From: an uncultured Pseudomonadota bacterium
GTDB lineage: Bacteria; Myxococcota_A; Polyangia; Fen-1088
Length of the DNA stretch: 64,000 nucleotides
Direction of reading: 5' to 3'
NCBI GenBank assembly: GCA_963847705.1
Contig: CAWKBC010000027.1
Location: 352,001 to 416,000, forward strand
The notes under the pieces were generated by a model. That model was not told the origin of the DNA, ran no database searches, and saw only the letters and a program-made list of their open reading frames with translations. Both the position numbers and the translations under genes were made by a program. Below are positions 28,743-43,269 of this stretch, piece after piece (positions within the stretch are counted from its first letter, which is position 1; each line of letters begins with the position of its first letter).

Positions 28743-29726
28743 TCAAGGAAGCAGGACCGCGGCTCCCTCGATGCGACCGTGTCGAAGATCATCAAGCGCC
28801 TCGTTGGCGCGTGCCAGCGGATAGGCCGCGGTCTGGACCCTGACCGGAACGCGCGGCGCCAGCGCCAGGAACTCCTCGGCGTCGCGTCGGGTCAGGTTGG
28901 CCACCGATCGGACCGTCCGCTCGCCCCAGAGCTCTGCGTAGGGGAACGACGGAATGTCGCTCATGTGGATCCCCGCGCAGACGACCGTCCCCCCCTTGGC
29001 GACGACCCGCAGTGCGGCCGGGACGAGAGCCCCGACCGGCGCGAAGATCAGCGCGGCGTCGAGCGGCTCGGGAGGCGCGGCATCCGAGCCGCCGGTCCAG
29101 ATCGCGCCCAGTCCGCGCGCGAACGCCGCCGTCGCCGCGTCGCCGGGACGGGTGAAGGCGTAGATCGCGCGCCCCTCGTGGCGCGCCACCTGCGCGATGA
29201 TGTGAGCGGCGGCGCCGAACCCGTAGAGGCCGATCCGCCTGGCGTCGCCGGCCGCCCGCAAGGCGCGGTAGCCGATGAGGCCGGCGCAGAGGAGCGGCGC
29301 CGCCTCTTGGTCCGAGTACTCCACCGGCAGCGGGAAGCAGAAGCGGTGATCGGCCACCACCAATTCGGCGAAACCGCCGTCCAGGTGATAGCCGGTGAAG
29401 CGGGCCCGGTCGCAGAGGTTCTCGCGCCCCGACCGGCAGAACGGGCAGACGCCGCAGGTCCAGCCGAGCCAGGGGACGCCGACCCGATCGCCGACGGCGA
29501 ACCGGTCGACCCGATCTCCCTTCTGCACGACGACGCCGACGATCTCATGCCCGGGCACGAGGGCCTGCTTCGGATCGGCCAGCTCGCCGTCGACGATGTG
29601 GAGATCCGTCCGGCAGACCGCGCAGGCGCTGACGCGGATGAGGAGCTGATCCTCGCCCGGCCTGGGCGGTGCGATCTCGGTCGCGGCCAGCGGTCGCCCG
29701 GGACCCTCGAGGACCATCGCGCGCAT
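28743..29726 (-). CDS. Zinc-binding alcohol dehydrogenase family protein
   Basis: CRTDLH, GHEIVG, CGVCPFC...ENLC, YGFGAAA. Confidence 0.93.
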   Translation of the reverse strand: MRAMVLEGPGRPLAATEIAPPRPGEDQLLIRVSACAVCRTDLHIVDGELADPKQALVPGHEIVGVVVQKGDRVDRFAVGDRVGVPWLGWTCGVCPFCRSGRENLCDRARFTGYHLDGGFAELVVADHRFCFPLPVEYSDQEAAPLLCAGLIGYRALRAAGDARRIGLYGFGAAAHIIAQVARHEGRAIYAFTRPGDAATAAFARGLGAIWTGGSDAAPPEPLDAALIFAPVGALVPAALRVVAKGGTVVCAGIHMSDIPSFPYAELWGERTVRSVANLTRRDAEEFLALAPRVPVRVQTAAYPLARANEALDDLRHGRIEGAAVLLP

Positions 29727-29745: not shown

Positions 29746-30324
29746 TCACCCCTTGCGGGCGTTATAGACCGGGCGGCCGCTGGCGGCGAACCGGCGGAAG
29801 CCCTCGAGCGCCTCGGCGCGGAGGAGGCCGTCGCGGACGGCAATGCCGCGGCGGCGGAGCTCGTCGGGCCAGTGGGGATGGAGGGGGCCCTCGTCGAAGC
29901 CGGTCAACGCCTCCATCTCGGGCCCGCTGCCGGCGATGACCACGCTGCGGACGCCCGACCAGCAGATCGCGCCACAGCACATCGCGCAGGGGGCCCAGTT
30001 GACGACGATCTGGCAAGCGGGTTGGCCGGGACCGCCCAGATCGTGCCCGCCGATCGCCTGCTGCGCGAGCGACAGCGCCATCACCTCGGCGTGCGCCGAC
30101 GAGCAGCGCCCCGGGACGACGCGGTTGACGCCGATCGACACCACGCGACCGGTCGCCTCCTCGAACACCGCCGCCGCAAACGGCCCGCCGGTGTCGCGGT
30201 CGAAGTTCGTGCGCGCCAGCTCGATGACCCAGCGCATGCGCGCCTCGTCGTCGAGCTGCGCGGGCGCAGCAGCGAGTGACTCACTCGCCCAGTCGGGGAG
30301 GCTCAGCTCGAACCGTGTTGCCAC
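29746..30324 (-). CDS. Zn-dependent nucleoside/nucleobase deaminase (GuaD/TadA-like), probable guanine deaminase
   Basis: GGPFAA, HAEV, PCAMCCGAI; divergent from the purine ABC operon. Confidence 0.8.
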   Translation of the reverse strand: MATRFELSLPDWASESLAAAPAQLDDEARMRWVIELARTNFDRDTGGPFAAAVFEEATGRVVSIGVNRVVPGRCSSAHAEVMALSLAQQAIGGHDLGGPGQPACQIVVNWAPCAMCCGAICWSGVRSVVIAGSGPEMEALTGFDEGPLHPHWPDELRRRGIAVRDGLLRAEALEGFRRFAASGRPVYNARKG

Positions 30325-30431
30325 CGTGTTTCCTTGCTGCTTCTTTCTGTTGCCGTCGCCTCCGACTCTACCGAACTCCGCTTGTGTTCGTCGAGCGCCC
30401 GGTCTAGAAAAAATGAGAAAGCCCGAGGTGA

Positions 30432-32024
30432 ATGGGTAGAGCCGCAGCCGCCGACGATCACCTGGCGGGGATGTCCCCAGCACCGAGGCTCGCGCTGACA
30501 AATGTCAGCAAACGGTATCCAGGAGTTCAAGCCAACGATCGCATCAGCCTGACGGTCATGCCGGGCGAGATCCACGCCGTGCTCGGGGAGAACGGCGCCG
30601 GCAAGTCGACGCTGATGAAGATCATCTACGGCGCGGTGCGCCCCGACGCCGGCAGCCTGGCCTGGAACGGCGCGCCGGTGGCCATCCACAATCCGCGTCA
30701 GGCGCGCGCGCTGGGGATCGCCATGGTGTTCCAGCACTTCGCGCTGTTCGAGACGCTCACGGTCGCCGAGAACGTCTGGCTCGGCATCGACAAGAAGATG
30801 ACCCGCGCCGAGGTGGGGCGCGAGGTCGAGCGGGTGTCGGGCCTCTATGGCCTCGAGCTCGAGGCCGGGCGGATGGTGTCGAGCCTCTCGGTGGGGGAGC
30901 GCCAGCGGGTGGAGATCCTGCGCGCGCTCCTCACCAAACCGCAGCTGCTGATCCTCGACGAGCCGACCGCCGTGCTCACGCCGCAGATGGCGGAGCGGCT
31001 GTTCGTCACCTTGCGCCAGCTGGCCGGCGAAGGCTGTTCGATCGTCTACATCAGTCACAAGCTCGACGAGGTGCGCGCGCTCTGCACGCGCTGCACCGTC
31101 CTGCGCGCCGGGCGTGCCGTGGGCGCGGTCGATCCGCGCCTCGAGACCAACCGCAGCCTGTCGGAGCTGATGCTCGGCGCCGCACCGCCGGCGCCTCCGG
31201 TGCGCGCCGCGCGGATCGGCGAAGCCGCGCTGGAGGTGCGCGGCCTGTCATTGCCGTCGATCGACGAGCTGGGGGTGGCGCTCAAGGAGATCGGGCTTTC
31301 GGTCAGGAGCGGAGAGATCCTCGGCGTGGCTGGGGTCTCCGGCAACGGGCAGGCCGAGCTGCTCGCCGCTCTTTCGGGCGAGGACCGGCGCGCGCCCGCC
31401 GGCAGCGTCCGCCTGTTCGGTCGCGACGTGGCGTCCGCGGCGCCGCGGACGCGCCGCGCGCTGGGGCTCCACTTCATCCCCGAAGAACGGATCGGCCGCG
31501 GCTCGGTCCCGGGCCTGGCGCTGGCCGACAACACGCTCCTCACCCGGCGCGAGCCGGTGGGGAAGGGGGGGTGGTTGCACCGCGGCCGCGCCCGGCGGCT
31601 GGCCGCCAGCTTGATCGCGCGCTTCGGCGTCAGCGCGCGCGGGCCCGACGCGATCGCCGGGAGCCTCTCGGGCGGAAACCTGCAGAAGTTCATCGTCGGC
31701 CGCGAGGTGGGCGCCACGCCCAAGGTGCTGGTGGTGGGGCAGCCGACCTGGGGGCTCGATGTGGGCGCGGCGGCGCTGATTCGCCGCGAGATCGCCGCGC
31801 TCTGCGACGCGGGGGGCGCCGCGCTGATCGTCAGCGAGGATCTGGAAGAGCTGTTCGAGCTCTGCTCGGATCTGGTGGTGATCGCGCGTGGGCGATTGTC
31901 ACCGCGGATCGCGGTTCGCGACGCCAACCCCGCGCTCATCGGTCAGTGGATGAGCGGCCTGTTCGCCGAGACGGCGGGGCCGGAGGTGGCACCGATGGCG
32001 GCCGGCGTGGAGGCCCATGCTTAG
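30432..32024 (+). CDS. Purine/nucleoside ABC transporter ATP-binding protein (double NBD)
   Basis: GENGAGKST, ILDEPT, LSGGNLQK; start may be 30471. Confidence 0.92.
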   Translation: MGRAAAADDHLAGMSPAPRLALTNVSKRYPGVQANDRISLTVMPGEIHAVLGENGAGKSTLMKIIYGAVRPDAGSLAWNGAPVAIHNPRQARALGIAMVFQHFALFETLTVAENVWLGIDKKMTRAEVGREVERVSGLYGLELEAGRMVSSLSVGERQRVEILRALLTKPQLLILDEPTAVLTPQMAERLFVTLRQLAGEGCSIVYISHKLDEVRALCTRCTVLRAGRAVGAVDPRLETNRSLSELMLGAAPPAPPVRAARIGEAALEVRGLSLPSIDELGVALKEIGLSVRSGEILGVAGVSGNGQAELLAALSGEDRRAPAGSVRLFGRDVASAAPRTRRALGLHFIPEERIGRGSVPGLALADNTLLTRREPVGKGGWLHRGRARRLAASLIARFGVSARGPDAIAGSLSGGNLQKFIVGREVGATPKVLVVGQPTWGLDVGAAALIRREIAALCDAGGAALIVSEDLEELFELCSDLVVIARGRLSPRIAVRDANPALIGQWMSGLFAETAGPEVAPMAAGVEAHA

Positions 32025-33111
32025 GTTGGTGCTTCGCTCGCCACCGTCACGGGCGCTGACGCTGGCGGCGCCCTTCGTGGCGCTGGCCCTGACCGTGCTC
32101 TTCGGCGCGGTCCTCTTCCTGGCCCTCGGCCATCCGCCCGGGCAGGCGCTGGCGCTGTTCTTCCTCGAGCCGCTGCGCGGCGCTGATGCCTGGAGCGAGC
32201 TGGCGGTCAAGGCGACGCCGCTCGCGCTGGTGGCGCTGGGGCTGGCCATCTGTTTCCGGGCCAACGTCTGGAACATCGGCGCCGAAGGGCAATTCATCGT
32301 CGGGGCGTTGGGGGCGACGGCGGTGGCGATGCGGGCGCATGAAGGAACGCACGCCGCGGTCATCTTGCCCGCCATCGCGCTGGCCGGGATCGCGGCGGGC
32401 GCGGCCTGGGCGGCGGTGGTGGCGTTCCTGCGCGATCGCTGGAACGCCAACGAGATCCTGGTGAGCCTGATGCTGGTCTACGTGGCCGACATGCTCCTCG
32501 GGTATCTGACCTACGGCCCCTGGAAGGATCCCGACGGCTACAACTTTCCACAGACGATCAGCTTCCTGCCCGTCACGCAGGTCCCGCTGCTGGCCGAGGG
32601 GCACCGCGCCCACGTCGGTCTGTTCGTGGCGTTGTTGGTGGCGCTGGTGGCCTGGCTCTTCCTGTTTCGAACCTATGGCGGCTTCCAGCTGACGGTGGGC
32701 GGTCAGGCGCCGCGGGCGGCGCGGTACGCCGGCTTCTCGGCGCGCCGCTCGCTCTGGACCGCTCTCCTCTGTTCGGGCGGCCTGGCCGGGTTGGCCGGCG
32801 CGCTGGAGGTGACCGGCCCGCTCGGGCAGCTGACGCCGCACCTGCCGGTCGGCTACGGGTTCACGGGGATCATCGTGGCGTTCGTCGGGCGCCTGCACCC
32901 GCTCGGCATCCTGCTCTCGTCGATCCTGATGAGCATGCTCTACATCGGCGGCGAGCTGGCGCAGTCGCGCCTCGGCCTGCCGCAGGCGCTCTCGGGCGTG
33001 TTTCAGGGGCTCTTGCTGTTCACGCTGCTCGCCTGCGACGCCCTGGCGAGCTACCGGGTGCTGCGCGTGACGCCGCAATCTCGGGGCGAGAAAACGGTGG
33101 TGGCGGCCTAG
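32017..33111 (+). CDS. Purine/nucleoside ABC permease
   Basis: WNIGAEGQ, NEILVSLML, GYGFTGI. Confidence 0.92.
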   Translation: MLRLVLRSPPSRALTLAAPFVALALTVLFGAVLFLALGHPPGQALALFFLEPLRGADAWSELAVKATPLALVALGLAICFRANVWNIGAEGQFIVGALGATAVAMRAHEGTHAAVILPAIALAGIAAGAAWAAVVAFLRDRWNANEILVSLMLVYVADMLLGYLTYGPWKDPDGYNFPQTISFLPVTQVPLLAEGHRAHVGLFVALLVALVAWLFLFRTYGGFQLTVGGQAPRAARYAGFSARRSLWTALLCSGGLAGLAGALEVTGPLGQLTPHLPVGYGFTGIIVAFVGRLHPLGILLSSILMSMLYIGGELAQSRLGLPQALSGVFQGLLLFTLLACDALASYRVLRVTPQSRGEKTVVAA

Positions 33112-34037
33112 TGGGCGGTTTGGCGCTCATGCTGGCGGCCTCCGTCAACGCGGGGACGGTGCTGGCGCTGGCGGGCCTCGGCCTGCTGGTCAACGAACGG
33201 GCCGGCGTCCTGAACCTGGGCGCCGAGGGGATGATGCTGATGGGCGCGCTGGCCGGCTACGCGACGGCGCTGCACCTCTCGGGCGGGTGGATGTTCCTGG
33301 CCTATCTCGCCGCCGCGGGCGCGGGGGCGGCGATGGCGGCGCTGTTCGGCTGGCTGGCCATCGGGATCGGCACCAACCAGTACGCGACCGGGTTGGCGCT
33401 CAGCCTGTTCGGCGTCGGCTTCTCCGCCTTCGCCGGCGCGTCGTTCGTCGACAAGCAGCTCCCCGAGCGTGGCCGCGACGGGCTCCCCTGGCTGCGCGAT
33501 CTGCCGGTGGTGGGGCCGGCGCTGTTCGGCTACCACCCGCTCGTCTACGCGACCCTGCTCCTCGCCGCGGCGCTCGCCTGGTTCTTCTTCCGGTCGCGCG
33601 CGGGGCTCCTGCTTCGGGCCGTGGGCGAATCGCCCGAGTCGGCGCACGCGCTCGGGCACCGCGTGCGCGCGATCCGGTTGGCGGCGGTGATCTTCGGCGG
33701 GGCCATGTGCGGCCTGGCCGGGGCCTACGTCTCGCTCGCCTACACGCACCTGTGGGTCGAGAACCTGATCGCCGGTCGCGGGTGGATCGCGCTGGCGCTG
33801 ACCACCTTCGCGACCTGGCGGCCGGCGCGAATCATCCTCGGCGCCTACCTCTTCGGTGGGCTCACCATGTTGCAGTTCCACCTGCAGGAGCGGGGCGTCC
33901 AGATCGAGAGCCACCTCCTCGGCATGATCCCCTACCTCGCCACTGTCGTGGTGCTGGTGCTGATCTCGCGCCGCGCCGCCTGGATTCGCCACAACATGCC
34001 CGCCTCGCTGGGCCGCATCTTTCGACCGGGCACCTGA
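33111..34037 (+). CDS. Purine/nucleoside ABC permease
   Basis: ERAGVLNLGAEG, RAVGESP, GRGWIALAL. Confidence 0.92.
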   Translation: MGGLALMLAASVNAGTVLALAGLGLLVNERAGVLNLGAEGMMLMGALAGYATALHLSGGWMFLAYLAAAGAGAAMAALFGWLAIGIGTNQYATGLALSLFGVGFSAFAGASFVDKQLPERGRDGLPWLRDLPVVGPALFGYHPLVYATLLLAAALAWFFFRSRAGLLLRAVGESPESAHALGHRVRAIRLAAVIFGGAMCGLAGAYVSLAYTHLWVENLIAGRGWIALALTTFATWRPARIILGAYLFGGLTMLQFHLQERGVQIESHLLGMIPYLATVVVLVLISRRAAWIRHNMPASLGRIFRPGT

Positions 34038-34091
34038 CGGAGCCGACCAATCAACGCACGTACAACCGCCGCGCAACCAGGAGACAACCGA

Positions 34092-35195
34092 ATGCACAAG
34101 CGACGTTCCCGACCTTCACTGTTCTTTGGTCTGCTGACTCTGACGCTCGCGCTTGCCGTCGTCGGGTACGGCGGCGCCGAGGCGGCCGGGCCGCTCAAGA
34201 TCGGGTTCGCCTACGTCGGCCCGGTCGGCGACGCCGGTTGGACCTTCGCGCACGACAAGGCCCGCAAGGCGGTGGAGGCGGAGTTCGGCCCCAAGGTCAC
34301 CACGATCTTCGTGGAGAACGTCCCCGAGGCGGCCGACGCCGAGCGGGTGCTGCGCGACATGGTCAAGCAGGGCTGCGGCCTCATCTTCGGCACGACCTTC
34401 GGCTACATGGGGCCGATGTTGAAGGTGGCGGCGACGGCGCCGACCGTGAAGTTCGAGCACGCCACGGGATACAAGACCGCGCCCAACCTGAGCACCTATG
34501 ACTCGCGCACCTATGAGGGGGCCTACATGGCCGGCGTGATCGCGGGCGGGATGACCAAGACCAACACGCTCGGCGTGGTGGCGTCGATCCCCATCCCCGA
34601 GGTCATTCGCAACATCGACTCCTTCACCCTGGGCGCCCAGAGCGTCAACCCCAAGGTCACCACCCGGGTGGTCTGGGTCAACAAGTGGTTCGACCCGCCC
34701 AAGGAGAGCGAGGGGGCGCTGGCGCTCATGAACGACGGCGCCGACGTGCTGATGCAGAACACCGACTCGTCGGCGGTCCTGCAGGCGGCCGAGAAGGCCG
34801 GCAAGCACGCCTTCGGCTGGGACTCCGACATGGCCAAGTACGGCCCCAAGGCCCACCTGGGGTCGGCGGTGATCAACTGGGCGCCCTACTACAAGAAGTC
34901 GGTCAAGGACGTCCTCGACGGGACCTGGAAGTCCGGGCAGACCTGGTGGGGGGTCAAGGAAGGGGCGATCGATCTGGTCTCCGTCTCGCCGGCGGTGCCG
35001 GCGGCGCTCAAGAAGAAGCTCGAGACCGTCAAGGCCGGCCTCAAGAGCGGCACCTACGCGATCTGGAAGGGGCCGATCGTCGACCAGGACGGCAAGACCG
35101 TGCTCAAGGCGGGCGAGACGGCCGACGACAAGTTCCTGCACGGGATCAACTTCTACGTGACCGGCGTGCAGGGAAAGTTGCCCAGCTCCAAATAG
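34092..35195 (+). CDS. BMP-family ABC substrate-binding protein
   Basis: Signal peptide; YVGPVGDAGWTFAHD, GTTFGY, WFDPPKE, QNTDS. Confidence 0.93.
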   Translation: MHKRRSRPSLFFGLLTLTLALAVVGYGGAEAAGPLKIGFAYVGPVGDAGWTFAHDKARKAVEAEFGPKVTTIFVENVPEAADAERVLRDMVKQGCGLIFGTTFGYMGPMLKVAATAPTVKFEHATGYKTAPNLSTYDSRTYEGAYMAGVIAGGMTKTNTLGVVASIPIPEVIRNIDSFTLGAQSVNPKVTTRVVWVNKWFDPPKESEGALALMNDGADVLMQNTDSSAVLQAAEKAGKHAFGWDSDMAKYGPKAHLGSAVINWAPYYKKSVKDVLDGTWKSGQTWWGVKEGAIDLVSVSPAVPAALKKKLETVKAGLKSGTYAIWKGPIVDQDGKTVLKAGETADDKFLHGINFYVTGVQGKLPSSK

Positions 35196-35211
35196 CGGAC
35201 AGGATGACCTG

Positions 35212-36654
35212 GTGAACTCTGGCGACGCGCTCGACCGACACGCCGCGCGCGTGCGCCAGGAGCTGGAGCTCCTCGACTACCCGCGGCGGCCCTGGATGCC
35301 CAACCGGATGTCCAACCTGGGCGGCGCGGGCGGGGCGTCGGGTCAGGAGGTCGTCGACGTCCTGATCGTCGGCGCGGGGCAGGGCGGTCTGACGGCGGCG
35401 TTCGGCCTTTCGCGCGAGCGCGTCTCCAACCTGCTGGTCGTCGACGAGAACCCGCTCGACCGCGCCGGGCCCTGGCTCAACTTCGCGCGCATGCGCACGC
35501 TGCGCACGCCCAAGTACGTCACGGGGCCGGATCTTGGCGTCCCCAGCCTCACGCCACGCGCCTGGTACGAGGCGCAGCACGGCGCCGGCAGCTGGGAGGC
35601 GCTGGGGCTCATCCCCAAGGAGACCTGGGCGGCGTACCTGGCCTGGTACCGGCAGACGCTGGAGATTCCGGTGCGCCCAGATACGCGCGTGGGTGCGTTG
35701 CGCTGGAACGCGGCCGCGGCGGCCTGGGACGTGCCGGTCACCGACGCGCGCGGCGGCGGTGGCGGGGAGACGTTGCGCGCGCGGCGGGTCGTGCTGGCGA
35801 CGGGGATCGACGGGTCGGGGCAGTGGGAGATCCCCGCGATGATCCGCGACGGCCTGCCGCCGCGGCTCTACGCGCACACCCGCCAGGAGATCGACTTCGC
35901 GGCGCTGGCCGGCAAGCGCGTGGCGGTGCTGGGGGCGGGCGCCTCCGCCTTCGACAACGCCGCGACCGCGCTCGAGCGGGGCGCGGGCGAGGTGGTCCTC
36001 TGCTTTCGCCGCCCCAGCCTGGTCAACGTCAACGCCTACCGCTGGGCCGAGTTCGTGGGGTTCCTGCGCCACCTCGGCGATCTCCCCGACGTCGACAAGT
36101 GGCGCTTCATCCGGCAGATCGTGCGGATGGGACAGCTTCCTCCGGCAGACACGGTCAAGCGCGCCCGCGGGCACGCCGGCTTCCGGTTGCACGCGGGCTG
36201 CGCCTGGAGCGCCGTCGAGGCGCGCGGCGACACCGTCGTCATCCGCTCCGCCGGCGGCGAGACCCACGAGGTCGACTTCGTCATCGTCGGCACCGGCTTC
36301 GTCACCGATCTCGCCCGGCGGCCGGAGCTGCGCGAGGTGGAGCCGCACATCGCCCGCTGGTCGGATCGTTTTTCACCGCCTCCCGGAGAGGTCTCCGACG
36401 ATCTGCTGCGCCACCCGTACCTGGGCCCCGGGTTCGAGCACACCGAGAAGGTGCCGGGCGCGGCGCCCTACCTGAAGTACCTCTACAACTACACCTTCGG
36501 TGGCCTCTTGAGTCTGGGCTTCGGTGGCGCCAGCATCTCGGGGATGAAGTATTCAATCCCGCGCCTGGTGGGGGGCATCACCGGCTCGTTCTTCGTCGAG
36601 GATCGCGACACGCACTTCGACAGTCTGCGCACCTTCGCCGAGACGGAGTTCTAG
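35212..36654 (+). CDS. hpyO: FAD-dependent urate hydroxylase (HpyO-like)
   Basis: GAGQGG, GPWLNFARMRTLRTPK, ATGIDGSG, GAGASAFDNA, HPYLG; sits before allB-alc-uraD-uraH. Confidence 0.75.
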   Translation: MNSGDALDRHAARVRQELELLDYPRRPWMPNRMSNLGGAGGASGQEVVDVLIVGAGQGGLTAAFGLSRERVSNLLVVDENPLDRAGPWLNFARMRTLRTPKYVTGPDLGVPSLTPRAWYEAQHGAGSWEALGLIPKETWAAYLAWYRQTLEIPVRPDTRVGALRWNAAAAAWDVPVTDARGGGGGETLRARRVVLATGIDGSGQWEIPAMIRDGLPPRLYAHTRQEIDFAALAGKRVAVLGAGASAFDNAATALERGAGEVVLCFRRPSLVNVNAYRWAEFVGFLRHLGDLPDVDKWRFIRQIVRMGQLPPADTVKRARGHAGFRLHAGCAWSAVEARGDTVVIRSAGGETHEVDFVIVGTGFVTDLARRPELREVEPHIARWSDRFSPPPGEVSDDLLRHPYLGPGFEHTEKVPGAAPYLKYLYNYTFGGLLSLGFGGASISGMKYSIPRLVGGITGSFFVEDRDTHFDSLRTFAETEF

Positions 36655-38072
36655 TGGCCCGCACCATCGGCGCGCGCGCCCACCTGGCCAAGCTGACCGC
36701 CCACCCGGGCCTCTGGGGGCTCCGCAGCCGGCGCATCGTCGGACCGGACGGGCGCATCCGTCCCGGCACCGTGCTGATCGAGGAGGGGCGCATCCGCGCG
36801 CTCGTCTCCCGGCCGGCGACCGCCACGGTGCCGCCGGACATCCCGGTGGAGGACCTCGGCACGCGGGTGATCGCGCCGGGGCTGGTCGACTGCCACGTCC
36901 ACGTCAACGAGCCGGGACGCACCGACTGGGAGGGGTTCGCCACCGCGACCCGGGCGGCGGCCGCGGGCGGCGTCACCACGCTGGTCGACATGCCGCTCAA
37001 CTGCCTCCCGGTCACCACGACGCGCGCCGCCCTCGAGGAGAAGCGGCGCGCCGCCAGCGGGCAGCTTCACGTCGACGTCGGTTTTTGGGGGGGCGTGATC
37101 CCGGGGAACGCGGGCGAGCTGGCCGAGCTCGCCGCGGGCGGCGCGCTCGGCTGCAAGGCCTTCCTCGTTCACTCGGGCATCGAAGAGTTTCCCAACGCCA
37201 CCGAGGCCGATCTGCGCGCGGCCATGCCGGTGCTGCGCGACGCGGGGCTGCCGCTCCTGGTGCACGCCGAGCTCGATCTGGGCGATGTCCCCGCAACTGG
37301 CGGTGAGGACCCGCGCGCCTATGCGGGCTACCTGCGCTCGCGGCCGGCCGCCTGGGAGGACGCGGCGATCGCGCTCCTCATCAAGCTCGCCCGCGAGACC
37401 GGTTGCGCCGTCCACGTCGTCCACCTCTCCTCGGCGGCCTCGGTGAACCAGATCGCCCGCGCGAAGGCCGACGGGCTGCACTTCACCGCAGAGACCTGCC
37501 CGCACTACCTCTGTCTCGAGGCGGAGTCGGTGCCCGACGGCGCGACCGAGTACAAGTGCGCGCCGCCGATCCGCGACCACGAGAATCGTGAGGCGCTGTG
37601 GCGGGGGCTGAAGGACGGCGTCATCGATTTCGTGGTGACCGATCACAGCCCCTGCACGCCGGCCCTGAAAGGGCGGGAGCGGGGAGACTTCGCGAAGGCC
37701 TGGGGCGGGATCGCCTCGCTGCAGCTGGGGTTGCCGGCGGTCTGGACGGAAGCGACCCGGCGCGGCCACAGCCTGAGCGACATCTCCGCCTGGATGAGCG
37801 CGCGTCCCGCGGCGCTGGCGGGGCTCGGGCGGCGCAAAGGGCAGATCGCCCCCGGCTTCGACGCCGATCTGGTGGTCTGGGATCCCGAGGCAGAGATCGA
37901 GGTCGACGCCGAGCATCTGCAGTTTCGCCACAAGGTCTCGCCTTATCTGGGGCAGCACCTCAAGGGGCGCGTCGAGGCGACGTTTCTCCGGGGCCGACTG
38001 GCCTACGACGGCAGCGGTCATCCCGCAGGCCCGGTGGGCGCGCCGATCCTGGGCCGGGACACCCGCGCATGA
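36654..38072 (+). CDS. allB: Allantoinase
   Basis: DCHVHVNEPGRTDWEGF, DMPLN, HAE, HLSS, ETCPHYL, KCAPPIR, TDHSP. Confidence 0.93.
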   Translation: MARTIGARAHLAKLTAHPGLWGLRSRRIVGPDGRIRPGTVLIEEGRIRALVSRPATATVPPDIPVEDLGTRVIAPGLVDCHVHVNEPGRTDWEGFATATRAAAAGGVTTLVDMPLNCLPVTTTRAALEEKRRAASGQLHVDVGFWGGVIPGNAGELAELAAGGALGCKAFLVHSGIEEFPNATEADLRAAMPVLRDAGLPLLVHAELDLGDVPATGGEDPRAYAGYLRSRPAAWEDAAIALLIKLARETGCAVHVVHLSSAASVNQIARAKADGLHFTAETCPHYLCLEAESVPDGATEYKCAPPIRDHENREALWRGLKDGVIDFVVTDHSPCTPALKGRERGDFAKAWGGIASLQLGLPAVWTEATRRGHSLSDISAWMSARPAALAGLGRRKGQIAPGFDADLVVWDPEAEIEVDAEHLQFRHKVSPYLGQHLKGRVEATFLRGRLAYDGSGHPAGPVGAPILGRDTRA

Positions 38073-39148
38073 GCTCCTCGTCCAGCTCGCCCGCCGCCAC
38101 GTTCTCCGGCCTGGTCGATCTGGCCGCCGCTGGGCTGGGCGGGCGGGCGCTCGGCGCCAGCGACGATTTCTTCGCCGGCGCGGACAATCTGCTGCAACCG
38201 GAGCGCGCGATCTTCATCGCGGGGAAATTCACCGAACGCGGCAAATGGATGGACGGCTGGGAGAGCCGGCGCCGGCGCACGAGCGGGCGCGAACTCGGCC
38301 ACGACTGGTGTGTCCTGGCGCTGGGCGCCCCGGGCGAGGTCGTCGGCTTCGACATCGACACCCAGCACTTCGTGGGGAACCACCCGCCCTTCGCCTCGGT
38401 CGAAGGTCTGTGGGCGCCCGACGCCGCGGAGGGGGCCGCCGCGCTGCTGGCGCACCCAGGCTGGGTCGCGTTGCTCGAGCAGTCCCCCCTGCGCCCCGAC
38501 GCGCAGAACCTGTTCGCGGCGCTCGGGCGTGGGCCGGTGAGCCACCTGCGGCTGAACATCTTCCCCGACGGCGGCGTGGCCCGCTTTCGCGCGTTCGGAC
38601 GGGTTCACCCGCGCTGGGATGCGGCGCCCGCGCTCGACGAGGAGACGCGCGCTCAGGTGGCCCCCGAGCTGCGCGATCTGGCGGCGCTGGCCAACGGTGG
38701 GCTGACGCTGGCCTGCTCCGACGCGCACTTCGGCCCGATGAACAACCTGCTCCTGCCGGGGCGCCCCGCCGACATGGGCGGCGGCTGGGAGACGCGGCGC
38801 CGGCGCGGCCCCGGATACGACTGGATCCTCGTCAAGCTGGGCGCGCGCGGCGCGCCCGCCGTCGTCGAGGTCGACACCCGGCACTTCAAGGGGAACTTTC
38901 CCGATCGCTGCTCGCTGGAGGCGATCGACGCGCCCGCCGGCGCGCGCATCACCGACCTGGTCGGCTCGGACGCCTGGCGGCCGCTGGTGCCGGAGGCGAA
39001 GTTGCGGGCCGACGCGCGTCACTTCTTCACGGTGGCGGGCGCGCGCTCGGCCGGTGGGGCGGACCCCTCGGTGACCCACGTGCGCCTCAACATCTTTCCC
39101 GACGGCGGCGTGGCGCGGCTGCGTGTCTGGGGGCGACCGGATGTCTGA
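38069..39148 (+). CDS. alc: Allantoicase
   Basis: Duplicated domain: SDDFF, MDGWESRRRR / GWETRRRR, RLNIFPDGGVAR twice. Confidence 0.95.
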   Translation: MSSSSSSPAATFSGLVDLAAAGLGGRALGASDDFFAGADNLLQPERAIFIAGKFTERGKWMDGWESRRRRTSGRELGHDWCVLALGAPGEVVGFDIDTQHFVGNHPPFASVEGLWAPDAAEGAAALLAHPGWVALLEQSPLRPDAQNLFAALGRGPVSHLRLNIFPDGGVARFRAFGRVHPRWDAAPALDEETRAQVAPELRDLAALANGGLTLACSDAHFGPMNNLLLPGRPADMGGGWETRRRRGPGYDWILVKLGARGAPAVVEVDTRHFKGNFPDRCSLEAIDAPAGARITDLVGSDAWRPLVPEAKLRADARHFFTVAGARSAGGADPSVTHVRLNIFPDGGVARLRVWGRPDV

Positions 39149-39635
39149 CCCCCACACGGCGCTCAACGCGCTGCCGGCCGACGAGGCCCGCGCCGCGCTG
39201 GCCCGCTGCTGCGGCTCGGCGCGCTGGGTCGCCGGCATGATGGCGCGGCGCCCCTGGGCGACGGCGGCCGCGCTCTTCGCCGACGCGGAGGCCACCTGGG
39301 CCGGGCTCGCGCGCGACGATGTTCTGGAGGCGTTCGCCCACCACCCGCGCATCGGCGCGCGCGCCGAGCAAACGGACGATGCCTGGGCACGCCAGGAGCA
39401 GGCGCGGGTCGCCGACGCCGACGGTGAAACGCGGCGCGCGCTGCTCGAGGCCAACGAGCAGTACCTGCAGCGCTTCGGCTACATCTTCATCGTGTGCGCC
39501 ACGGGGAAGAGCGCCGGCGAGATGCTGGGCCTGCTCGGGGCACGCCTGGGCAACGCTCCGGAGCGCGAGCTGGCGATCGCCGCCGGCGAACAGGCGCGCA
39601 TCACCCGATTGCGTCTGGAGAAGCTCGCCGCATGA
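39141..39635 (+). CDS. uraD: OHCU decarboxylase
   Basis: CCGSARWV, AFAHHPRIG, QEQ, RFGYIFIVCATG, EQARIT. Confidence 0.93.
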   Translation: MSDPHTALNALPADEARAALARCCGSARWVAGMMARRPWATAAALFADAEATWAGLARDDVLEAFAHHPRIGARAEQTDDAWARQEQARVADADGETRRALLEANEQYLQRFGYIFIVCATGKSAGEMLGLLGARLGNAPERELAIAAGEQARITRLRLEKLAA

Positions 39636-39970
39636 ATTCACTCACCTCGCATGTCCTGGACGTCGCTCTCGGTCAGCCGGCGCGCGGCGTGACGCTGCGC
39701 CTGGAGGTGCTGGAAGGGACGAGCTGGCGATCCCTCGGCGCCGGCGTCACCGACGCCGACGGCCGCCCCGGCGACCTGCTGGCCGGCGCCCCGCTCCAGG
39801 CGCGCACCTACCGCCTGACGTTCGAGACCGGAGCCTACTTCGCCGCCACCGGGCGGCGCTCGTTCTACCCGCGGGTCGAGGTCACCTTCGACGTGGCGAC
39901 GCCGGCCGAGCATCATCACGTTCCGCTGCTCCTGTCGCCGTTCGGCTACTCGACCTACCGCGGGAGCTGA
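39632..39970 (+). CDS. uraH: 5-hydroxyisourate hydrolase (transthyretin-like)
   Basis: SHVLD, TDADGR, HHHVPLLLSPFGYSTYRGS C-terminus. Confidence 0.96.
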   Translation: MNSLTSHVLDVALGQPARGVTLRLEVLEGTSWRSLGAGVTDADGRPGDLLAGAPLQARTYRLTFETGAYFAATGRRSFYPRVEVTFDVATPAEHHHVPLLLSPFGYSTYRGS

Positions 39971-39983
39971 GGAGAGCCATCCG

Positions 39984-41429
39984 ATGACAGCCGACAGCCA
40001 GGACGATTTCGGACCGCACCTCGCGGCGCTGGGGCAGGCGAACCGGGACTGGGCGCGCTTGTACCCAGGCGATCCGCCCGCCCGACAGCCGATCCACACG
40101 GTCTACGGCGGTGCCCACCTCTACAAGGCCGAGACCACGCGGCGGCTGGGCGAGCTGGCGCTGCGCCAGATCTCCCGCTACGCCCCCGACGCCGTGGCGC
40201 TCGCCCGCGGCGTCGGCTTCGTGCCCGCGGCGACGTTCGAGGCGCCGGGCGCGCCCGACGCTGCCGCGTGGCGCGCTGCCTTCGAAAGCGACGGGGCGGC
40301 TCTGCGCAAAGAGAGCCCGCAGGCCTGGCTCGCCTTCACGGTGCACGACCGCGTGCTCGCCAAGCTGCGCCGCGAGGCCGTCGAGGACTTCCGCATCGAC
40401 TTCGAGGACGGCTACGGCGCGCGCCCCGACGCCGACGAGGACGCCACCGCGGTGGCCGCCGCGGGCGAGGTGGCGCGCGGGCTCGTCGAGGGACTGCTGC
40501 CGCCGTTCATCGGCATCCGGATCAAGTCGTTCGGCGCCGAGTGGCAGGCGCGCGGGGCGCGCACGCTGGAGATCTTCGTCGATGCGCTGCTCACCGCGAC
40601 GGGCGGACGACTCCCCGACAACTTCGTCATCACGCTGCCCAAGGTCACCATCGCGGAGCAGCCGCGCACGCTGGTCCGGCTCTGCGAGCGCCTCGAAGCC
40701 CGCCACGGTCTGCCCGCCGGGGCCCTGCGGATCGAGCTGATGATCGAGACGACGCAGGCGCTGCTCGGGCCCGACGGCCGCTCGCCGCTGCCGGCGTTCC
40801 TGGAAGCCTGCGAGGGGCGCTGCCGGGGGGCGCACTTCGGGACCTACGATTTCACCGCGTCCTGCAACATCACCGCCGCCTACCAGAGCATGGACCACCC
40901 CTGGTGCGACCTCGCCAAGGGGATGATGATGCTGGCCTACGCCGGGACCGGCCTCTTCCTCAGCGACGGCGCCACCAACGTCATGCCGGTGGGACCGCAC
41001 CGCGGCGAGACGCTCACCGCCGACCAGGAGCAGCAGAACCGCGCCGTCGTCCACGCTGCATGGAGGCTGGCCCACCGGCACATCCGCCATTCGCTGGAGG
41101 GCGGCTTCTATCAGGGGTGGGATCTGCACCCGGGGCAGCTGCCGGTCCGCTACGCCACCTGCTTTGGGTTTTTTCTGGAGGGCTTCGCCGCGGCCGCCGA
41201 GCGGCTCCGCAACTTCGTCGAGAAGGCGGCCCAGGCCACCCTGGTCGGCGACGTCTTCGACGACGCAGCGACGGGGCAGGGGCTGCTCAACTACTTCCTG
41301 CGCGCGCTCAACTCGGGGGCCATCGAGCCGGGCGACCTCGGTCAGACCGGCCTCGAGGCCGACGAGGTGGCGCTGCGCTCGTTCGCCAAGATCCTGGCCG
41401 CGCGCCGCGCCCGGCTGCGGACCGGATGA
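39984..41429 (+). CDS. HpcH/CitE aldolase-lyase-fold protein (DUF6986-like)
   Basis: RQPIHTVYGGAH, EDFRIDFEDGYG, TLPKV, ELMIET, HFGTYD, LSDGATN, YQGWDLHP; AGGAG RBS. Confidence 0.75.
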   Translation: MTADSQDDFGPHLAALGQANRDWARLYPGDPPARQPIHTVYGGAHLYKAETTRRLGELALRQISRYAPDAVALARGVGFVPAATFEAPGAPDAAAWRAAFESDGAALRKESPQAWLAFTVHDRVLAKLRREAVEDFRIDFEDGYGARPDADEDATAVAAAGEVARGLVEGLLPPFIGIRIKSFGAEWQARGARTLEIFVDALLTATGGRLPDNFVITLPKVTIAEQPRTLVRLCERLEARHGLPAGALRIELMIETTQALLGPDGRSPLPAFLEACEGRCRGAHFGTYDFTASCNITAAYQSMDHPWCDLAKGMMMLAYAGTGLFLSDGATNVMPVGPHRGETLTADQEQQNRAVVHAAWRLAHRHIRHSLEGGFYQGWDLHPGQLPVRYATCFGFFLEGFAAAAERLRNFVEKAAQATLVGDVFDDAATGQGLLNYFLRALNSGAIEPGDLGQTGLEADEVALRSFAKILAARRARLRTG

Positions 41430-41508
41430 GTCGTCGAAATTTACACGATGTTCACGAGCCAGAAACGGCGGCGTCGCCAGTGATGTGCTCAGATTATGTC
41501 GAGGGACA

Positions 41509-42630
41509 ATGTCAGCGTCGTTCGATGTTTCTCCGGCGCTTCGGTTGACGCCGCTCGAGGGTGGTGGCCGCGAAGTGGACTTCGGGGCCGACGCCGGCCA
41601 CCTCGATCTCGAGCGGCTCGACGAGGCCGGCTTCGCCGCGCTGGAACGGGCGGTCCTGACCCACTCGATCGTGGTGGTCCGCGGGCAGGAGCGGCTGTCG
41701 CCCCGGGCGCAGTTCGAGCTCACCCGCCGCTTCGACCCGCGGGTCACCAGCTACGGCCACGGGAACCGCCCCGACATCATGAAGCAGAGCGTGCTCGTGC
41801 AGGACCTGGTGTCGATCCCCGCTTGGCCCCAGGTCAAGCTGCTCGGTCACGGCCGCGTCACCGAGCACGAGGGGCTGCCGCCGGTCGACCTTCACCATCC
41901 CTCTCACCGCAGCTTCCACCACACCCCGCTGACCGACGAGCAGGAGGCGCGCGGCCTGACCCGCTTTTACCGCTGGCACATCGACGCCGCGCTCTACGAG
42001 CTGCACCCGCCCAAGGTCACCACGCTGCTGGCGATCAAGGTTCCGGAGGCGCGTCGCCAGACGGTGGTCTACGACGACGGCAGCGGCGACACGCTGGACG
42101 TCACGCTGGGGACGACCGCGTTCGTCTCGGGCGCGCGGGCCTTCGAGCTCCTGTCGCCCGCGCAGCGCGCCTGGGCGCTGAAAACGAAGGCCCGCTACGC
42201 GCCGCACCCCTACGTCTGGATCCGCAACGCGCGCGCCCGCTCGAACGGCCTCGGCCTCGTCTCCGAGGGGCGCGAGCTCTCGCGGGCGGAGCTGCCACCC
42301 TACGACGAGGCGAAGGTGATGACGCTGCCGCTCGTCTGGAAGAACCCGCTCACCGGCCGCCAGGCGCTGCAGCTGCACGCCTACTGCGTCGAGGATCTGC
42401 TGGTGGACGGCCAGCCGATCGGCGATCTCGAGACCTGCCGGGGCCTGCTCTACGAGCTGATGCGCCCGGCGATCGCGCCCGCCCGCGTCTACGCGCACGC
42501 CTGGCAGGACGGCGATCTGGTGATCTTTCACAACCGCGCCGTCTGGCACAGCGTCGTCGGATCGATGCGGCCGGACGATCTGCGCGTCTATCACCAGTGC
42601 AACCTGGCCGCCAGCGAGCCGGTCGATTAG
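41509..42630 (+). CDS. xanA: Fe(II)/alpha-ketoglutarate-dependent xanthine dioxygenase (fungal XanA-like, TauD fold)
   Basis: LSPRAQFELTRRFDP, TRFYRWHIDAALY, RQTVVYDDGSG, GTTAFVSG, YAPHPY, WKNP, FHNRAVWHSVVG, QCNLAA match fungal XanA blocks as recalled; GAGG RBS. Confidence 0.85.
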   Translation: MSASFDVSPALRLTPLEGGGREVDFGADAGHLDLERLDEAGFAALERAVLTHSIVVVRGQERLSPRAQFELTRRFDPRVTSYGHGNRPDIMKQSVLVQDLVSIPAWPQVKLLGHGRVTEHEGLPPVDLHHPSHRSFHHTPLTDEQEARGLTRFYRWHIDAALYELHPPKVTTLLAIKVPEARRQTVVYDDGSGDTLDVTLGTTAFVSGARAFELLSPAQRAWALKTKARYAPHPYVWIRNARARSNGLGLVSEGRELSRAELPPYDEAKVMTLPLVWKNPLTGRQALQLHAYCVEDLLVDGQPIGDLETCRGLLYELMRPAIAPARVYAHAWQDGDLVIFHNRAVWHSVVGSMRPDDLRVYHQCNLAASEPVD

Positions 42631-42855: not shown

Positions 42856-43269
42856 ATGGAGACGAGCGACAACGAGAGGGTGGTTCGTGAGATCTACGAA
42901 GCGATCGGGCGGGGGGACGTCGCCGAGGTGCTCGCGCGCATGAAGGAGGATGCGCGGTGGGACTTCAACGTCGGGCCGAGCGATGTTCCCTGGCACGCGC
43001 CGGCGACGGGGCCGGAGGAGATCCAAAAATTCCTGGGCGGATTCATCGAGAACGTGACGCTCACGGCCTTCGAGCCGCGCCGGTTCATCGCCTCGGGCGA
43101 CGACGTCGTCGTTGATGTCCACCTCGCCTACACCGTCAAGCGGACCGGGAAGCTCGTCGATCTCGACCAGCTCCACTGGTGGTCGCTGGCCGACTGGCGC
43201 GTGACGCGGCTCCGACACTTCGAGGACACCGCGCAAGTCATGTCGGCCTGGAGCGACGGCTCTGGCTGA
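42856..43269 (+). CDS. SnoaL/NTF2-like protein
   Basis: VVREIYEAIGRGD...DARW...GDDVVV...HFEDT; AGGAG RBS. Confidence 0.85.
   Translation: METSDNERVVREIYEAIGRGDVAEVLARMKEDARWDFNVGPSDVPWHAPATGPEEIQKFLGGFIENVTLTAFEPRRFIASGDDVVVDVHLAYTVKRTGKLVDLDQLHWWSLADWRVTRLRHFEDTAQVMSAWSDGSG

Follow-up and report, generated by a model that had tools for sequence, protein, structure and literature searches.

A gene for a predicted XanA-type xanthine dioxygenase trades places with molybdenum xanthine dehydrogenase genes in a purine degradation cluster of Polyangia

We analyzed a 64,000-nucleotide stretch of contig CAWKBC010000027.1 (positions 352,001 to 416,000; assembly GCA_963847705.1, hereafter G000), termed the window, which originates from an uncultured, myxobacterium-like soil bacterium of the Polyangia and carries at positions 29746-42630 a cluster of 12 purine degradation genes ending in xanA, a gene predicted to encode an Fe(II)/2-oxoglutarate-dependent xanthine dioxygenase. 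XanA probably performs the conversion of xanthine to urate, a step encoded in the corresponding cluster of related bacteria by the genes of molybdenum xanthine dehydrogenase (Mo-XDH), so that the nitrogen of guanine would become usable with no molybdenum enzyme involved. The strongest point in favor of this reading is the repeated exchange of xdh and xanA within one conserved cluster. This cluster is real and conserved, and constitutes a variant of oxidative purine catabolism whose novelty lies in a bacterial XanA that has traded repeatedly with Mo-XDH.

Results

Exchange of xanA and xdh within one cluster

Twenty-seven genomes carrying an hpyO cluster, 16 from the window's order and 11 reached via xanA loci, were classed according to their genes for the xanthine step. 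In 14 of them xanA lies inside the cluster and canonical XdhB is lacking (best XdhB match at most 232 bits for a cut-off of 849.5). Ten others carry xdh genes directly upstream of hpyO; none of these has xanA in the cluster and four have it elsewhere. This XDH-type class comprises three genomes over the XdhB cut-off plus G497, the genes of the others being split by frameshifts or contig ends. The last three genomes have neither xanA nor xdh in the cluster, G492 and G501 with xanA elsewhere and G002 without. The G002 locus (L027, contig C10) extends from hpyO to DUF6986 in a genome without xanA, canonical XdhB or a close deaminase, and is perhaps a urate-only version of the cluster.

In the XDH-type locus L025, xdhB-xdhA-xdhC are found between bmp and hpyO, where the window displays a gap of 16 bp. 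L044/L021 carries xanA at the far end of the cluster together with a leftover xdhC fragment (amino acids 94-175, 57%) upstream of hpyO, and is sister, with a support of 100, to the XDH-type locus L041 in a five-gene tree. This tree was built from 18 XanA-type rows (five of them metagenome contigs), six of the ten XDH-type rows and the three rows with neither, leaving out G072, G007-G009, G499 and L023. The XanA/XDH state changes five times in it, and the starred branches require three to four of these changes; a single origin was rejected (approximately unbiased test, p-AU 6.5e-8). Mutual exclusion together with repeated swaps is what non-orthologous replacement would be expected to produce, and we conclude that XanA most likely replaces Mo-XDH in this cluster.

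Among the 21 xanA loci retrieved from GTDB, 13 carry hpyO and its neighbors within 10 kb, indicating that the arrangement is not due to chance; one (L023) carries only DUF6986 and seven carry none of these genes. L023, labelled as a beta proteobacterium, is frameshifted, comes from a genome without hpyO and was excluded from the counts. Four positions of xanA were observed. The gene may follow DUF6986, follow bmp, stand convergent behind DUF6986, or be divergent from hpyO, in which case a deaminase gene often comes next. In a survey of 89 genomes of the order, xanA was present in 9 of the 16 genomes with hpyO and in none of the 73 without. Fifty bacterial-type metagenome xanA loci, many of them short, showed a cluster gene on the contig in 27 cases and an xdh match in none.

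A first-pass annotation of this DNA had reported no XDH, HpxDE or uricase gene in the window, which proved correct, and in the assembly as a whole, which is 84.7% complete with 6% contamination, neither XDH, uricase nor HpxO exceeded its cut-off. The genome search for xdhABC that it had called for returned no match to PF02738 or TIGR02965 and no tblastn match to the XdhA, XdhB and XdhC of a relative, and a domain scan detected no Rieske gene in the cluster. One VanA_C Rieske oxygenase is encoded on another contig, where no purine gene is recognizable from nearby starts of open reading frames (ORFs). XanA could be a back-up enzyme, used for example under molybdenum shortage, with the main XDH or Rieske hydroxylase being unassembled or of a divergent family. 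The incompleteness of G000, which lacks even MoaC, a gene that all 25 genus relatives possess, speaks for such a role, as do the presence of molybdenum cofactor (Moco) genes, distant xanthine-oxidase-family matches of 130-300 bits in several xanA genomes and a VanA_C Rieske gene in 5 of the 18 genomes tested. However, canonical XdhB is missing from each of the 14 genomes that have xanA inside the cluster. The ten XDH-type genomes place it beside hpyO, and the window shows this site assembled and closed. We give the back-up role only a slim chance.

Independence from molybdenum nevertheless concerns the pathway and not the cell. The search for Moco genes yielded MoeA and three matches to PF00384 (molybdopterin oxidoreductase), one of the two PF00994 matches looking CinA-like and the other being MoeA. 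MoaC is absent from the assembly but is also present in six of the seven other xanA-cluster genomes of the order. MoeA, the PF00384 matches and the MoaC of relatives rule out a Moco-free organism, and the initial description of the cluster as molybdenum-free holds for the predicted pathway, not for the bacterium.

Identity of the XanA protein

The last gene of the cluster (41509-42630, + strand) encodes a 373-amino-acid protein of the TauD family (PF02668) that is likely, from its identity to fungal XanA, a XanA-type Fe(II)/2-oxoglutarate xanthine dioxygenase, predicted to convert xanthine to urate. Its best match among 50%-identity representatives is a Colletotrichum protein, a 98% relative of which is named xanthine dioxygenase xan-1 and is 50% identical to the window protein (349 amino acids). 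Identity to 120 fungal XanA orthologues ranges from 47 to 55%, and 120 bacterial-type homologues were found at 69-95%, some of them already labelled 'xanthine dioxygenase' by the automatic Joint Genome Institute (JGI) pipeline. We aligned 121 bacterial-type rows with the 120 fungal orthologues and compared 12 fungal paralogues. The Fe(II) triad (H157, D159 and H347) and the 2-oxoglutarate arginine R359 are invariant in the 121 bacterial and 120 fungal rows, and every bacterial row has Q363, C364 and N365, as do at least 119 of the fungal rows. The YRWHID, HPY and QCN segments are common to the bacterial proteins and the fungal orthologues and differ in most of the 12 paralogues, as do Y154-R155 and C364-N365. 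The pocket residues defined by mutagenesis in Aspergillus nidulans XanA are Q101, K122, E137/D138, Q356, C357 and N358; these numbers fit protein P0245 at a constant offset of +7. At the corresponding sites the window protein keeps Q108, E144, Q363, C364 and N365, and has H129 at K122 and Q145/E146 near D138. The structure model confidently adopts the TauD fold (predicted local distance difference test score, pLDDT, 93.1; Foldseek match to TauD 1gy9, E 1e-17), and no close PDB entry was found (best E 1e-6).

Several observations weigh against this assignment. The equivalent of A. nidulans Lys122, presumably a 2-oxoglutarate contact, is His129 in the window protein and is variable in bacteria (R in 48, H in 43 and Q in 11 of the 121 rows), with R or K in fungi. 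Seven of the 21 GTDB xanA loci lie outside purine clusters and four of those genomes also have XDH, while G002 retains the cluster but lacks both xanA and canonical XdhB. Fungal XanA paralogues are said, in a 2014 review, to use other substrates (PMC5611559). All of this would suit a XanA relative acting on another compound, for example a methylated or oxidised purine or an aza-purine derived from nucleic-acid turnover, in a cluster serving mainly to scavenge urate and allantoin and in which the loss of XDH was unrelated. We consider this alternative unlikely, although somewhat less so than a back-up role: guanine deaminase is kept in all eight xanA-cluster genomes of the order and its product would otherwise have no outlet, xanA is found in 16 of the 17 cluster genomes without canonical XdhB, and the bacterial clade joins the XanA orthologues and not the paralogues. 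Besides, XanA occurs alone or alongside Mo-XDH in fungi too, according to the same review (PMC5611559). Other reservations concern the comparisons themselves. Orthology was judged via named relatives, A. nidulans XanA and Xanthomonas campestris HpyO lying outside the comparisons; the sample is partly selected, 11 of the 27 classed genomes having been chosen for carrying xanA; related genomes are not independent counts; and absences are soft because most genomes are metagenome-assembled genomes 67-96% complete. The functions assigned to the XanA cluster are predictions.

According to the last alternative, xanA does not work with the cluster and is a mere passenger, or else fungal DNA contaminating the assembly. 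This view draws on the fungal nature of the closest non-myxobacterial relatives of xanA, on the 6% contamination of the assembly and on the 79-bp gap before the gene, in which a conserved element suggests a promoter of its own. It is largely refuted and hardly credible. The GC content at third codon positions of xanA (0.925) is host-like, the values across the cluster being 0.89-0.95, and the 120 close homologues are of bacterial type. Moreover, xanA is joined to the cluster in its four positions in many assemblies and is present on the closed chromosome of Sorangium sp. So ce726. Named relatives belong to the Polyangia/Myxococcota.

Origin of XanA

Three quick trees all placed the bacterial rows in one clade, sister to the Dikarya XanA orthologues (support 99, 91 and 94), with the fungal paralogues and Gonapodya falling outside this grouping. 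The orthologues were picked by source names, A. nidulans itself is absent from the set, and the outgroup rows are metagenome proteins. A topology holding all fungal rows together was not rejected (p-AU 0.318), so that transfer in either direction is compatible with the trees; the 2014 review also allows for transfer of XanA from a non-fungal organism (PMC5611559). The broader reading that XanA is old in Polyangia, replaced Mo-XDH several times there and was the non-fungal source of fungal XanA, with DUF6986 closing the pathway, is speculative and we rate it as doubtful.

Eight proteins (P0289, P0309, P0319, P0330, P0277, P0383, P0364 and P0373) form a metagenomic clade, about 30-38% to XanA, outside all fungal and myxobacterial rows; knowing to which taxon this clade belongs might settle where the family arose. 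Thirty metagenome matches at 49-55% with lower GC were considered as a second bacterial xanA lineage, a reading that was rejected since the 12 inspected looked eukaryotic. No plasmid match was obtained. The metagenome contig L108 (2055-14573) bears a fungal-looking purine cluster composed of a PuuE-like deacetylase, a racemase, uraH, two NCS1 permeases, xanA, an amidohydrolase, a split allantoicase bearing a ureidoglycolate lyase domain, and an HpyO-like flavoprotein at 34% to that of the window. This contig represents an independent pairing of XanA with an HpyO-like protein, and its XanA sits in the fungal clade.

Organization of the cluster

An ORF check of the window found all 12 genes intact, and family matches agree with the run of genes initially described there: a divergent deaminase, followed by an ATP-binding cassette (ABC) ATPase, two permeases, a BMP protein, a flavoprotein, allB, alc, uraD, uraH, DUF6986 and the TauD-family gene. 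From the ABC ATPase to xanA there are ten junctions, six of which overlap or abut; the remaining gaps measure 13, 16, 54 and 79 bp, and 146 bp separate the deaminase from the ABC ATPase. We infer that the cluster is co-transcribed. A sequence search found no sigma-70 promoter, and terminators were not in excess. In one soil metatranscriptome 5% of the words were present and the contigs were mostly relatives at 85-95%; it is therefore uninformative on expression in this organism.

The 79-bp gap 5' of xanA (41430-41508) contains an element (TTACACGA ... GAAAC) conserved in genus-level relatives. Of 20 GTDB xanA loci, whose rows are related, 16 have GAAAC/GTTTC no more than 150 nt upstream, versus 129 of 619 background regions, and the element could possibly be a promoter or operator proper to xanA. 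In the deaminase/ABC gap (30325-30470), TGTTCGTCGAG-like and GAGGTGAATGGGTAGA blocks are conserved across four relatives and no Rfam match was found; the cluster contains no regulator gene. Two adjacent genes shared with the closest relatives only, a SnoaL-like gene 3' of xanA (42856-43269, + strand) and a zinc alcohol dehydrogenase gene beside the deaminase (28743-29726, - strand), are probably not members of the cluster.

Guanine deaminase and importer

The divergent gene (29746-30324, - strand; GTG start inferred from relatives) encodes a predicted guanine deaminase of 192 amino acids belonging to the cytidine deaminase superfamily (PF00383), of NE0047 type (PDB 2g84/4hrq, phmmer E 7e-50). 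In the 2g84 alignment the residues matching NE0047 F48, N66, E79, F141 and E143, whose roles in guanine deamination are given in PMC9081823, are identical and the zinc motif is present. Its orthologues (79-94%) occupy the same place in relatives. An amidohydrolase-type guanine deaminase was sought as well in five genomes, where nothing exceeded the cut-off.

The importer comprises an ATPase with two ABC domains (30471-32024, + strand; PF00005 twice), kept in the clusters of relatives, two permeases (32017-33111 and 33111-34037, both + strand and PF02653) and a BMP/PnrA-type substrate-binding protein (34092-35195, + strand; PF02608). The latter matches PDB 3s99 and 6pi5 (E ~1e-111), whose ligands we take to be purines, and is a predicted purine binder. 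A second BMP/ABC set, at 34-38% to that of the window, is located near urease and urea carboxylase genes on another contig of the assembly (G000:C10:73458-102775), which is a separate nitrogen-scavenging region.

The urate step

Downstream of bmp, the gene at 35212-36654 (+ strand) encodes an HpyO-like FAD/NAD(P)H flavoprotein (PF13454/PF13738), predicted to be the urate hydroxylase forming 5-hydroxyisourate (HIU). Its close homologues bear either of two JGI labels, 'FAD-dependent urate hydroxylase' or 'CzcO'. In 4 of 120 homologues (P0215, P0237, P0240 and P0244, 739-802 amino acids) it is fused to XdhC, which would tie the flavoprotein to XDH-type purine clusters, and in Niveispirillum a 49% homologue abuts uraH. 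The flavoprotein, uraH and uraD are found in place of uricase, HpxO and PuuD: the assembly contains no uricase, and its best HpxO match reaches 67.5 bits for a cut-off of 500. PuuD was rejected as urate oxidase, the single PF06181 (DUF989) match being a 209-amino-acid short form without cytochrome c and outside any purine context. Uricase is absent from all 27 hpyO genomes and present in Sorangium sp. So ce726, a xanA genome without hpyO, in agreement with the reported alternation of urate oxidases (PMC4562309). This cultured strain also has a divergent XDH-family locus.

The end of the pathway and DUF6986

The following four genes, all on the + strand, were assigned by curated NCBIfam cut-offs as allantoinase AllB (36654-38072; TIGR03178, 544.8 bits, cut-off 357.85), allantoicase Alc (38069-39148; TIGR02961, 378.8 bits, cut-off 277.9), 2-oxo-4-hydroxy-4-carboxy-5-ureidoimidazoline (OHCU) decarboxylase UraD (39141-39635; TIGR03180, 175.2 bits, cut-off 139.4) and HIU hydrolase UraH (39632-39970; TIGR02962, 129.3 bits, cut-off 87.45). 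They are followed by DUF6986 (39984-41429, + strand; PF22484, E 4e-173), predicted from its fold match to be an enzyme of malyl-CoA lyase/malate synthase fold assimilating glyoxylate. Within the order, each of the 16 genomes with hpyO has DUF6986, as does one other; the gene stands alone in L136 (G012:C56:5351-6700), a 15-kb stretch without hpyO or other cluster genes. The term was not encountered in the literature searched.

The AlphaFold model of DUF6986 has a pLDDT of 77.5, falling below 50 in the lid region. Its best VIA-align match is the Rhodobacter sphaeroides malyl-CoA lyase 4l9y (Z 21.9, root mean square deviation 3.8, 288 aligned), followed by CLYBL (Z 20.7) and Haloferax malate synthase (Z 18.1), the top rows being tied between lyases and synthases; a profile search retrieved the same two families weakly (E 0.98 and 1.4). 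R179, E255, D289 and D426 are invariant in DUF6986 and are candidates for a Mg/oxo-acid site and lid Asp. Judging from the model, condensation of glyoxylate with acetyl-CoA is its likeliest role, slightly better than an even bet. A more elaborate proposal, in which one active site frees urea from ureidoglycolate and fixes the glyoxylate as malate, is doubtful. No ureidoglycolate lyase was found in the genome, the C-terminal motif of DUF6986 is degraded in L021, and 10 of the 27 cluster genomes carry canonical malate synthase alongside DUF6986, all of which adds to the reservations made above. The window's genome has no match to canonical malate synthase (PF01274). A strict substitution of malate synthase by DUF6986 was rejected since the anti-correlation is unclean, PF01274 being present in 11 of 28 genomes, though in just 1 of 14 xanA-cluster genomes.

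Discussion

Gene content, synteny, mutual exclusion within the cluster, repeated swaps and active-site conservation were observed, and the activities in the following scheme are predictions. The BMP/ABC system would import purine bases, and the NE0047-type deaminase would convert guanine to xanthine and NH3. XanA would then oxidize xanthine to urate with O2 and 2-oxoglutarate, yielding succinate and CO2, and the HpyO-like flavoprotein would convert urate to HIU with O2 and NAD(P)H. UraH, UraD, AllB and Alc would lead from HIU through OHCU, allantoin and allantoate to ureidoglycolate and urea; urease and urea carboxylase, encoded elsewhere in the genome with matches over cut-off, would free the nitrogen, and DUF6986 would probably join glyoxylate to acetyl-CoA.

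The route from guanine to ureidoglycolate and the pairing of XanA with HpyO, both proposed in the first-pass annotation, are well supported by homology and by the swap patterns in relatives. Its view that all steps depend on O2 has to be abandoned: O2 would be needed only by XanA and HpyO, the remaining steps being hydrolyses and a decarboxylation. To call the pathway complete was too strong as well, given the missing ureidoglycolate lyase and the substrate range of fungal XanA, which takes xanthine and not hypoxanthine according to PMC5746545. Guanine and xanthine would be the only purines able to enter the pathway, and adenine-derived purines would therefore need another route. The enzyme combination had also been presented as unrecognized among bacteria. 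This stands for XanA, no bacterial XanA enzyme being described in the literature searched, which covers few subscription papers; in the 2014 review, XanA is called uniquely fungal apart from Phytophthora and no bacterial homologue was found at NCBI (PMC5611559). It does not stand for a Moco-free and uricase-free bacterial route, which is known from Klebsiella.

XanA would be a third bacterial solution to xanthine oxidation beside XDH and the Rieske enzyme HpxDE. Its origin is amenable to testing, and so is the question of what selects for an Fe(II)/2-oxoglutarate enzyme rather than a molybdoenzyme when the cell still makes Moco. The compact bacterial XanA proteins offer targets for a first structure, and the cluster provides a functional lead for DUF6986. 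It is to be noted that each chemical step is known, that homologues are partly auto-labelled, and that the gene is rare, xanA being found in none of 400 sampled genomes of the phylum.

Compared with known systems, the window protein shares with fungal XanA/Xan1 (A. nidulans, Schizosaccharomyces pombe) the TauD fold, the HxD...H triad, the arginine, the QCN segment and 47-55% identity, but it is bacterial, resides in an operon-like purine cluster, has HpyO instead of uricase as its partner and is variable at the Lys122 equivalent. In Klebsiella, the xanthine step is carried out by HpxDE, a Moco-independent Rieske hydroxylase. The Klebsiella hpx system likewise oxidizes the purine ring in a bacterium with a flavoprotein urate hydroxylase, HpxO, and no uricase (PMC4562309). 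The present cluster differs from it by a predicted 2-oxoglutarate dioxygenase at the xanthine step, a flavoprotein that is not HpxO, the processing of allantoate via allantoicase and the expected inability to use hypoxanthine. Xanthomonas HpyO, to which the window flavoprotein was likened via labelled homologues, is also an FAD/NAD(P)H flavoprotein found with uraH and uraD and alternating with uricase; here its partner is XanA. For DUF6986, the superfamily of malyl-CoA lyase, CLYBL and malate synthase H appears to share the TIM barrel and C-terminal lid region (Z 18-22) at only 14-19% identity, whereas malate synthases A and G, which belong to PF01274, have only the wider fold in common with it. 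The canonical Mo-XDH pathway is set apart by xdhA, xdhB and xdhC, which were not found in the window's genome. The closest system is the XDH-type cluster of Polyangia (L024, L025, L031, L033, L041 and L042), no description of which was found in the literature searched. It has the same hpyO-allB-alc-uraD-uraH-DUF6986 order with importer and deaminase nearby (in L042 allB was not reported and DUF6986 lies beyond the contig end), and differs by carrying xdhA, xdhB and xdhC upstream of hpyO and no xanA in the cluster.

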